Shown: positions 56,080 through 56,298 of the stretch, in pieces
Layout of the letters: every line of letters starts with the position of its first letter
How positions within the stretch are numbered: the first letter of the stretch is position 1
From: Escherichia coli
GTDB lineage: Bacteria > Pseudomonadota > Gammaproteobacteria > Enterobacterales > Enterobacteriaceae
Length of the DNA: 64,000 nt
Assembly: GCF_030013595.1 (NCBI RefSeq)
Contig: NZ_CP122768.1
Strand: one strand, 5' to 3'
The notes under the pieces: generated by a model
Databases searched by the model: none
Told to the model about the DNA's origin: nothing
Seen by the model: the letters and a program-made list of their open reading frames with translations, nothing else
Translations under genes and position numbers: made by a program

Positions 56080-56155
56080 TGGTGCTGGTTAACGGACTTG
56101 AACCGCTACCCATTCGCTTACAAGGCGACCGCTCTACCATTGGAGCTAAACCAGC
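56080..56155 (-). tRNA. tRNA-Thr (anticodon TGT), phage-borne
   Basis: 76 nt cloverleaf folded by hand: 7-bp acceptor GCTGGTT/AACCAGC, D-stem GCTC/GAGC, loop CTTGTAA, T-arm AGCGG-TTCAAGT-CCGTT, encoded CCA. Confidence 0.8.
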
Positions 56156-56160
56156 ATATT

Positions 56161-56235
56161 TGGCGGGACAGCGTGGACTCGAACCACGATAAGAAGGTTA
56201 ACAGCCTTCCGTAATGACCTTTATACGACTGACCC
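56161..56235 (-). tRNA. tRNA-Asn-like (anticodon GTT), phage-borne
   Basis: 75 nt; T-arm CGTGG-TTCGAGT-CCACG perfect; anticodon stem GAAGG/CCTTC, loop CTGTTAA; one mismatch each in acceptor and D stems; encoded CCA. Confidence 0.6.
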
Positions 56236-56298
56236 AAATAAAAAATCCCGAAACCGTTGTGCAGGCTCTAACTATTACCTGCGAACTGTTTCGGGATT
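56236..56298 (-). terminator. late terminator tR'
   Basis: long hairpin AATCCCGAAAC...GTTTCGGGATT followed by TTTTTTATTT on the minus strand; matches the lambda tR' region. Confidence 0.65.

Follow-up and report, generated by a model that had tools for sequence, protein, structure and literature searches.

What are two tRNA genes doing between the late terminator and the holin gene of a lambdoid prophage? The question arises from a 64,000-nucleotide stretch of Escherichia coli DNA (NCBI RefSeq assembly GCF_030013595.1, contig NZ_CP122768.1), which we call the window. We address it here by asking in turn whether the genes are genuine, how far the pair is distributed and conserved, whether its codons are in demand, and which host tRNAs it could stand in for.

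Two tRNA genes in a late leader

In the 64-kb window ARAGORN calls two tRNAs and no more, both on the minus strand (Table 1). The Rfam tRNA model (RF00005, gathering score 29) recovers the same genes, with 61.2 bits for tRNA-Thr (E = 8e-11 for the whole window) and 55.3 bits for tRNA-Asn (E = 3e-9 for the whole window). By covariance-model score and by the call of an independent tRNA finder, both are bacterial elongator tRNAs. The original prediction, made from the sequence alone, had recognized a Thr-TGT and an Asn-GTT gene, each with an encoded CCA, and these statements hold: both genes are called by both programs and the CCA ends can be read directly. The genes are also not copies of host genes, as the identity is only 64% between tRNA-Thr and E. 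coli thrU and 59% between tRNA-Asn and asnT. Two details had to be revised. The region 56080-56298 assigned to the pair does contain both tRNAs, while its part from about 56240 to 56298 is the tR' hairpin and not tRNA. Furthermore, because both genes lie on the minus strand, the order of transcription is Asn then Thr, rather than Thr then Asn.

Table 1. Features of the late leader and its surroundings, with positions in the window
Feature	Position	Strand	Description	Evidence
Late antiterminator Q, lambda type	56510..57133	(-)	206/207 identical to lambda Q	PHROG 127
PR' promoter, lambda type	56467..56439	(-)	TTGACT-17-TAAATT	promoter scan
PR' and 6S leader/qut region	56299..56467	(-)		promoter scan; alignment to lambda
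tR', lambda-type late leader terminator (6S RNA end)	56238..56298	(-)		near-identity to lambda; fold
tRNA-Asn(GUU)	56161..56235	(-)	75 nt; CCA encoded; G73 discriminator	ARAGORN, Rfam
Spacer AAUAU between tRNA-Asn and tRNA-Thr	56156..56160	(-)	5 nt	
tRNA-Thr(UGU)	56080..56155	(-)	76 nt; CCA encoded; G26 allele	ARAGORN, Rfam
Conserved hairpin directly 3' of tRNA-Thr	56022..56074	(-)	common to lambda	fold
Phage-21-type holin (S21 pinholin family)	55746..55961	(-)		Pfam PF04971, 122 bits; PHROG holin

The anticodon loops, CUGUUAA in tRNA-Asn and CUUGUAA in tRNA-Thr, are 7 nt long with U33 and a purine at position 37, and the T-loops, GGTTCGAGTCC and GGTTCAAGTCC, conform to GTTCRA. Alongside its UGU anticodon, tRNA-Thr has G1-C72 and C2-G71, the ThrRS identity pairs. 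The identity elements of AsnRS are G34, U35, U36 and G73, all of which are present in tRNA-Asn. The anticodon arms read GAAGG-CUGUUAA-CCUUC in tRNA-Asn and GUCGC-CUUGUAA-GCGAA in tRNA-Thr, the stem of the latter being topped by a G27.A43 mismatch. The two stem mismatches ascribed to the second tRNA are also real: tRNA-Asn has U4.U69 in its acceptor stem and U13.U22 in its D stem, and its variable loop is 4 nt long. MFE folding was tried as a measure of tRNA quality and proved uninformative, as the G26 tRNA-Thr, host asnT and host thrU also give no cloverleaf MFE structure, with cloverleaf energies within 1-2.5 kcal/mol of the MFE.

Over the stretch that begins at the 3' end of Q and takes in PR', the 6S leader and tR', only about 7 positions differ between the window and lambda, and the identification of tR' made in the original prediction is correct. 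The tR' hairpin (dG -26.9 kcal/mol, z = -6.5) is followed by U6AUUU, and tRNA-Asn begins 2-3 nt past this U-tract. The hairpin on the other side of the pair (dG -26.3 kcal/mol, z = -4.0; diversity pi = 0.11 among the IMG/VR matches listed) is possibly a second leader terminator, or else a processing or stability element. The protein genes of the late operon start with the holin, after which come a DUF1327 ORF, a lysozyme-family endolysin, Rz and the small and large terminase subunits. The position given in the original prediction, with the pair directly behind tR' and ahead of the holin, is anatomically right: the genes lie in the Q-dependent late leader.

A promoter scan of the minus strand from PR' to the holin found no promoter that would serve the tRNAs separately. 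Given the position of the genes, Q would let RNA polymerase pass tR', so that the tRNAs would be made within the late transcript, and host tRNA-processing enzymes would then cut them out of it. The claim that the tRNAs are expressed only under Q antitermination is worded too strictly, as it overlooks N-antiterminated read-through from PR and leak through the terminator, both of which may add to their production. Evidence for expression of the cassette was not found in the literature; a paper on P22 sncRNA concerns attP/thrW, which is a different locus, and a search on BTP1 likewise yielded no relevant result.

A comparison with lambda yields the exact borders of the cassette. The two sequences are collinear up to the U-tract of tR', diverge exactly there, and become homologous again 2 nt past the CCA of tRNA-Thr, for about 55 nt. 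A cassette of 159 bp (56237..56079) takes the place of 163 unrelated bp of lambda (44782-44944). ARAGORN finds no tRNA genes in lambda. We considered the possibility that the lambda segment is the remnant of a decayed tRNA and rejected it. The 9-mer TAAGCGAAT, common to the lambda segment and the cassette at matching spacing, looked suggestive at first, but the similarity is not significant: in local alignment the observed score is equalled or exceeded by 121 of 1000 shuffles, and in global alignment there are 83 identical positions compared with 79.8 +/- 4.5 in shuffles.

The prophage adjoins ybhB-bioA-bioBFCD-uvrB-moaA, with its tail-fibre end nearest ybhB, and ybhB-bioA is the integration site of lambda itself. 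This location bears on a suggestion made for HK446 in a 2026 preprint, that the tRNA makes up for a host tRNA gene which the prophage has disrupted by integrating. Many temperate phages do integrate into tRNA genes, and SfI and the P22-like carriers of the cassette integrate in thrW. For the window we give the idea next to no credence. There is no tRNA gene at the junction with ybhB-bioA and the cassette lies about 27 kb from that end, within the late leader. Furthermore, its anticodons are those of Thr(UGU) and Asn(GUU) and not the CGU of thrW, its identity to host genes is 59-64%, and the same cassette is found in phages with different integration sites.

Distribution and conservation of the Asn-Thr pair

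The cassette is already known and is widespread; it is the standard Asn(GUU)-Thr(UGU) unit of lambdoid and P22-like phages. When the region is searched by megablast, the tRNA pair is found in 85 GenBank phage records. The pair also occurs in 368 of 5426 complete E. coli genomes (~7%), where PGAP annotates tRNA-Thr and tRNA-Asn, and in at least 120 IMG/VR contigs. Matches to phiv205-1 (100%), Kapi1, HK446 and mEp506 extend across tR', these phages having a lambda-type tR' upstream of the cassette as in the window, and matches to Sf6, SfI, phage 21, BTP1, SPN9CC and many Salmonella P22-like phages run from the U-tract onward. The tRNA-Asn gene is identical at 75/75 positions (100%) to those of phage 21, Sf6, Kapi1, ST64T, JLK-2012 and HK446. 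For tRNA-Thr the identity is 76/76 with SfI and 75/76 with phage 21, Sf6 and HK446, the one difference being A26G.

The pair has been on record for some time. The Sf6 entry of 2003 annotates 'tRNA-Asn; tRNA-Thr; similar to phage 21', and in Sf6 the genes stand directly behind a Q, late promoter, qut site and terminator of the phage 21 type. The SfI paper places this tandem behind Q in SfI, Sf6, ST64T, PS3 and phage 21 (PMC3636060), two tRNA genes are recorded in the paper on the phage 21 genome (PMC9119081), and the cassette was described in a 1991 paper on the phage 21 late region, as cited in PMC3636060. The original prediction had taken the Thr/Asn pair to be unusual for this site, where Ile/Arg sets were thought to be the rule. 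This premise is wrong, because the pair is common in phage records, genomes and the literature; it is the classic set of phage 21, Sf6, SfI and the P22-like phages.

The window therefore holds a member of the lambdoid late-leader Asn-Thr cassette, with near-identical genes in the same position and order. The gene order, the 5-nt spacing and the place between a Q-controlled leader terminator and the holin are those of phage 21, Sf6, SfI and HK446. The window differs from these phages only in the combination of modules: a lambda-type Q/tR' is found with a phage-21 pinholin and with low-GC ORFs in the lysis cassette, and the tRNA-Thr is the minority G26 allele.

The same anticodons also occur together in phages unrelated to this type, in the P1-like D6, in P7-like plasmids, in the N4-like VEc25 and in T5. 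In the P1/P7/D6-like phage-plasmids and the N4-like phages the two are adjacent, and the Thr genes are 78-82% identical to that of the window. The Asn genes of these elements, at 56-61% identity, are not recognisably of the same lineage, and the genomic context is another one.

In order to describe how the cassette varies, we used the IMG/VR contigs, which were sampled by matches to the initial 18-19 nt of the Thr gene; the Asn gene lay outside the search criterion. Among the 119 matches listed, 90 have a tRNA-Asn identical to that of the window. The Thr gene has A26 in 81 of the same 119 and G26 in 14, the latter allele appearing in several different contexts. Diversity (pi) among the matches listed is 0.035 for tRNA-Asn and 0.013 for nt 20-76 of tRNA-Thr, and these are the two least diverse segments of the region. 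The values for the surroundings are 0.14 for the spacer, which alternates between AATAT and AACAT, 0.11 for the next 50 nt and 0.33-0.55 further out. Upstream of the cassette there are at least five types of leader terminator with a hairpin and a U-tract, of which the phage-21 type is the commonest and the lambda type is in the minority. The tRNAs are thus a conserved island within a mosaic region.

A divergent Asn variant from IMG/VR is informative about structure. It has the same acceptor stem, including U4.U69, while its D, anticodon and T arms are different and yet fully paired. In an alignment of the distinct tRNA-Asn variants, six base pairs are changed on both sides, a number that was reached by 0 of 500 shuffles and that comes mostly from this one variant; the variation of tRNA-Thr is too small for such a test. 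The stems of tRNA-Asn are maintained by compensatory change among homologues.

In two phages the fates of the genes have diverged. The Thr slot of ST64T has decayed and that of JLK-2012 is a chimera of phage sequence and host thrU that ARAGORN rejects, with tRNA-Asn unchanged in both. In some lineages tRNA-Asn is the more strictly conserved of the two.

Is tRNA-Asn nevertheless a decaying passenger, a pseudo-tRNA, so that tRNA-Thr alone matters? The original prediction held that the second tRNA may be degenerate, and there are points that favour this: the two stem mismatches, an Rfam score below that of tRNA-Thr, the 4-nt variable loop, and damage in some of the IMG/VR copies (1-nt deletions, an altered CCA and changes in the anticodon loop). 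In tRNAs, however, the 13:22 pair is commonly non-Watson-Crick, and host thrU is also mismatched (A52.C62 in the T stem). The 2026 preprint counts a single tRNA in HK446, which would fit as well. Yet HK446 has the same cassette behind the same lambda-type tR', with an intact tRNA-Asn that is unannotated in the GenBank record and that the preprint, describing 'a single' tRNA, has overlooked. With the AsnRS identity elements intact, a diversity 3-4 times below that of the adjacent spacer and flank among the matches listed, and a cloverleaf that is kept even in the divergent variant, we consider a pseudo-tRNA unlikely. The identity across contigs that were sampled via the other gene, the low diversity, the compensatory pairs and the persistence in ST64T and JLK-2012 all argue that tRNA-Asn is under constraint and not degenerate.

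The mosaic setting raises another possibility, that the cassette is kept mainly as a homologous linker for recombination of Q and lysis modules, without any selected tRNA function. It does lie exactly at a mosaic joint, where it connects a lambda-type Q/PR'/tR' module to a lysis module of the phage 21 type, and both the highly diverse flanks and the range of terminators upstream speak for the idea. Against it, the cloverleaf is upheld by compensatory changes, and the anticodons and identity elements are intact. Two independent studies found the Thr tRNA to have biological activity, which for tRNA-Thr already largely refutes the lack of a tRNA function, and recombination of lambda in this region does without the cassette. 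We therefore regard this explanation as very improbable.

Codon usage of the prophage

Stx phages of the 933W type, which are likewise lambdoid, carry ileZ-argN-argO just downstream of Q and the late promoter/terminator. This is another tRNA set, for the rare codons AUA, AGA and AGG, and its classical explanation is codon supply for stx and the late genes. The Stx-phage tRNA genes are also cited in the SfI paper (PMC3636060). For the cassette of the window the link to codon supply is weak by comparison, as the following analysis illustrates.

That the tRNAs compensate for phage codon usage was proposed both in the original prediction, with the late and cargo genes as beneficiaries, and in the 2013 SfI paper. 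We compared crude ORF sets of the window (23 host, 24 late and 13 early genes) with each other and with the annotated genes of lambda. The share of ACA among Thr codons is 11.6% in the flanking host genes and 19.5% in the prophage overall (p = 5e-4), and most of the excess is in the early genes (36.9%, p = 1e-8). The late genes, which are co-transcribed with the tRNAs, show only a marginal excess (16.0%, p = 0.052). Of every 1000 codons, 36.0 are Asn codons in the host genes, compared with 37.8 in the late (p = 0.57) and 51.7 in the early genes (p = 0.002), so the late genes are at the host level, and no raised share of AAT was found in the prophage genes of the window.

In lambda ACA makes up 14.1% of Thr codons in late genes and 31.2% in early genes, which does not differ significantly from the window (p = 0.40 and 0.36), and its Asn codons, at 35.7 per 1000 in late and 43.9 in early genes, are indistinguishable from those of the window. 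As lambda has this usage with no tRNA genes at all, ACA richness is not tied to carrying the tRNAs; it is a general lambdoid trait, strongest in genes that are expressed before the late operon. Over-use of the cognate codons specific to tRNA carriers, which marks codon-supplementing phage tRNAs, is not seen. E. coli has four tRNA-Asn genes, and there is no case for Asn supplementation. The SfI paper came to a similar picture, with a bias for ACA (17.3% compared with 7.1%) and none for Asn, and called the significance of tRNA-Asn 'not clear' (PMC3636060).

A link of the tRNAs to the low-GC 'cargo' ORFs of the lysis cassette was likewise considered and rejected, since Sf6, Kapi1 and HK446 carry the cassette without such ORFs. 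Those of the window are small, and two of the three are on the opposite strand.

What remains in favour of codon supply is the ACA excess of the prophage as a whole, together with the description of thrU as the sole UGU-anticodon tRNA of E. coli MG1655, possibly of low abundance. However, codon supply leaves unexplained why both anticodon stems are rebuilt exactly at nuclease-recognition positions, and overexpression of host thrU is unprotective where phage Thr tRNAs protect. On balance we think it a rather unlikely account of the cassette. The tRNAs may still help to a modest extent in reading the rare codon ACA, which is compatible with a role in counter-defence.

Probable resistance to anticodon-stem nucleases

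The nuclease-recognition positions are known from published experiments on two defence systems. P2 Old is lethal because it cleaves host tRNA-Thr(UGU) in the anticodon stem, where the CNG motifs at nt 28-30 and 40-42 are paired with each other and serve as the cutting site, and phage Thr(UGU) tRNAs rescue Old-hit cells by replacing the cut tRNA (PMC12445682, NAR 2025). One of these is the tRNA-Thr of phage 21 ('tRNAThr21'), which protects from P2-OLD and withstands cleavage because its anticodon stem is shortened and its CNG motifs are altered, including C28U/G42A (PMC12445682).

The Thr gene of the window has the features of this class: C28-G42 is replaced by U28-A42, the stem is shortened by the G27.A43 mismatch, and CNG is absent from both strands. 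It differs from tRNAThr21 at one base, position 26, which is outside the anticodon stem; the tested allele has A26 and the window G26. With its UGU anticodon, its ThrRS pairs, the loss of CNG and the short stem, the window tRNA would belong with tRNAThr21. The case for tRNA-Thr as a resistant substitute comes from the experiments by others on the A26 allele, and we infer the same for G26. In these experiments the Thr alleles of phage 21 and HK446 rescued cells or phage from plasmids, which is indirect evidence that such a tRNA is transcribed, processed and aminoacylated. Not all phage Thr(UGU) genes follow the Old-resistance pattern, as the P1-like Thr has retained both CNG motifs along with an anticodon stem of the full 5 bp, neither of which is found in the window Thr.

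Further experiments concern HK446, whose Thr(UGU) acts as a strong counter-defence when HK97, HK542 and Bas34 meet Old, while plasmid-expressed Thr(UGU) tRNAs do not rescue lambda from OLD, and HK446 also encodes, and needs, a protein inhibitor, Oad2 (bioRxiv 10.64898/2026.07.10.737580). Since lambda, whose sensitivity to P2 interference is classical, goes unrescued and HK446 needs Oad2, the tRNA alone is perhaps insufficient in nature. In the same study tRNA-Asn(GUU) is absent among the tRNAs depleted more than 2-fold by OLD (bioRxiv 10.64898/2026.07.10.737580).

The second system, PARIS, does reach tRNA-Asn. Its nuclease AriB has the host tRNAs Lys(UUU) and Thr(UGU) as substrates and, with lower efficiency, Asn(GUU); the cut falls between nt 40 and 41 in U36AAUC/N (the slash marks the cut), and a substitution of U39 alone abolishes cleavage of tRNA-Lys (PMC12409363). 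The Lys, Thr and Asn variants of T5 together neutralise AriB, and the T5 tRNA-Lys is required for rescue (PMC11464382, PMC12409363).

A comparison of anticodon arms illustrates how the window relates to both systems. Host thrU (ACUGA-CUUGUAA-UCAGU) has CNG on both strands and the AriB site UAAUC/A; the window Thr has a 4-bp stem, no CNG and UAAGC/G. Host asnT (GCGGA-CUGUUAA-UCCGU) again has CNG on both strands and the AriB site UAAUC/C; the window Asn has no CNG and UAACC/U. Neither window tRNA has U39. The divergent Asn variant (UUCGG/CCGAA, the two sides of its stem) likewise lacks U39 and the CNG pairs. To judge from these sequences, the anticodon-stem features recognised by Old and by AriB have been mutated away in both window tRNAs, and the Asn stem avoids every known recognition feature of the two nucleases.

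The T5 variants have substitutions at 39 and 41, which flank the 40/41 cleavage site, and both window tRNAs are substituted at these positions too, as would be predicted for tRNAs that evade PARIS in the manner of T5. The window and T5 also have the UGU and GUU anticodons in common, two of the three main targets of AriB, although the identity of the genes is only 57-60%. The T5 set includes a tRNA-Lys(UUU), however, and the window cassette has none. As tRNA-Lys(UUU) is the prime target of AriB, the cassette cannot by itself defeat PARIS. Pfam and PADLOC searches of the neighbouring unknown ORFs gave no defence-system assignment.

Taken together, the evidence suggests that counter-defence is the best-supported role of the cassette and that codon compensation is weakly supported. 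We consider it likely that this standard cassette of the phage 21/Sf6/SfI/HK446 type supplies cleavage-resistant substitutes for host tRNAs that tRNases destroy. In outline, Toprim tRNases of competing elements, which act by abortive infection and include P2 Old and PARIS AriB, destroy these host tRNAs, and translation of the late phage proteins would then continue by way of the substitutes. For tRNA-Asn this role is suggested by its anticodon stem.

A more specific proposal is that tRNA-Asn(GUU) is the functional partner of Thr(UGU) in a minimal late counter-defence cassette against Toprim/ABC-ATPase tRNases, be it Old, PARIS or a relative. The targets would be tRNases of competing P2-like prophages and P4-like satellites. 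Alternatively, the target may be a relative of Old and PARIS, not yet characterised, that mainly hits Thr(UGU) and Asn(GUU). We put this partnership forward tentatively, and judge it possible rather than probable.

The observation of the two genes itself adds nothing new; the value of the finding lies in the correction, and in the pointer to a conserved tRNA-Asn. The textbook view, that phage tRNAs fix codon bias, fits the Asn/Thr pair poorly, and the work of 2025-26 on Old and PARIS offers a better-supported reading for the Thr gene. If tRNA-Asn is indeed its partner, this would account for the fact that Thr alone rescues only partly, and for the recurrence of both anticodons together in lambdoid, P1-like, N4-like and T5-like phages.

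The joint between Q and the lysis genes

The tRNA cassette of the prophage, a tRNA-Asn(GUU) followed by a tRNA-Thr(UGU), sits at a mosaic joint. On one side are Q (206/207 against lambda), PR', 6S and tR'. On the other are a pinholin of the phage-21 type (PF04971) and an endolysin of the lysozyme family; the N-terminus of this endolysin, by inspection, is hydrophobic and SAR-like.

Features of the prophage late region
Feature	Window position	Strand	Description
Mosaic joint	55746-57133	-	lambda Q side fused via the tRNA cassette to a phage-21-type lysis side
Hairpin	56022-56074	-	directly 3' of tRNA-Thr; from folding
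DUF1327 protein ORF	55523-55741	-	between holin and endolysin; low GC
98-aa PHROG-25324 protein ORF	55202-55498	+	between holin and endolysin; low GC
230-aa PHROG-13652 protein ORF	53253-53945	+	flanked by Rz and the small terminase subunit; low GC

The hairpin beyond tRNA-Thr folds strongly (dG -26.3 kcal/mol, z = -4.0). It is kept in lambda and, among the matches listed, in most of the cassette-bearing viral contigs from IMG/VR. This conservation means that two leader hairpins bracket the cassette. The copy in the window has a U-rich tail, UCUUCUUUUUCUCCC, whereas the tail is not U-rich in lambda-like variants. The hairpin may be a second leader terminator, or it may serve as a processing or stability element.

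The cassette in related phages

The tRNA-Thr of the window carries C14 (window 56142). This position is nearly always A in tRNAs, where it pairs with U8, and in at least six of the IMG/VR copies it is T. The allele of phages 21 and HK446, which is functional in experiments, has C14 too. Beside its tRNA-Thr, phage HK446 hosts an intact tRNA-Asn(GUU) (L030 7334-7408) with the same sequence as ours. Both genes are unannotated in the HK446 GenBank record, and a 2026 preprint on Old, the P2 tRNase that cuts host tRNA-Thr(UGU), credits this phage with a single tRNA (bioRxiv 10.64898/2026.07.10.737580).

The Thr slot is altered in phages JLK-2012 and ST64T, while the Asn gene is unaltered in both. 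The annotated tRNA-Thr of JLK-2012 (L009 1581-1656) is a chimera, with a phage-type 5' acceptor and D arm and a remainder that is 86% host-thrU-like. Its anticodon stem has just 3 bp, and ARAGORN makes no tRNA call on it. After the chimera comes a tRNA-Gly(UCC), whose anticodon has been reported to be targeted by Old. In ST64T the UGU anticodon has been lost from the slot (L008 676-760).

Other observations in the window

A match to the Rfam sRNA family 'IS009' (29498-29696, minus strand, 227.7 bits) lies inside a prophage tail-fibre-assembly ORF (29458-30039); it is possible that a cryptic-prophage remnant, and not an independent sRNA, was the basis on which this family was defined. The region from ybhB to the prophage tail-fibre genes (26400-29450) corresponds in a close relative's genome to annotated IS/transposase fragments and an AraC-family regulator, and may be junk at the attR end or else form a small island. 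The molybdenum-cofactor riboswitch upstream of moaA (16638-16782, minus strand, 103 bits) belongs to the ordinary host chromosome.

Low-GC genes around lysis

Three ORFs with a GC content of 0.33-0.36 are inserted within or beside the lysis cassette, two of them on the opposite strand. Since neither a Pfam function nor a credible PADLOC match was found for any of the three, it is possible that these are morons or defence cargo.
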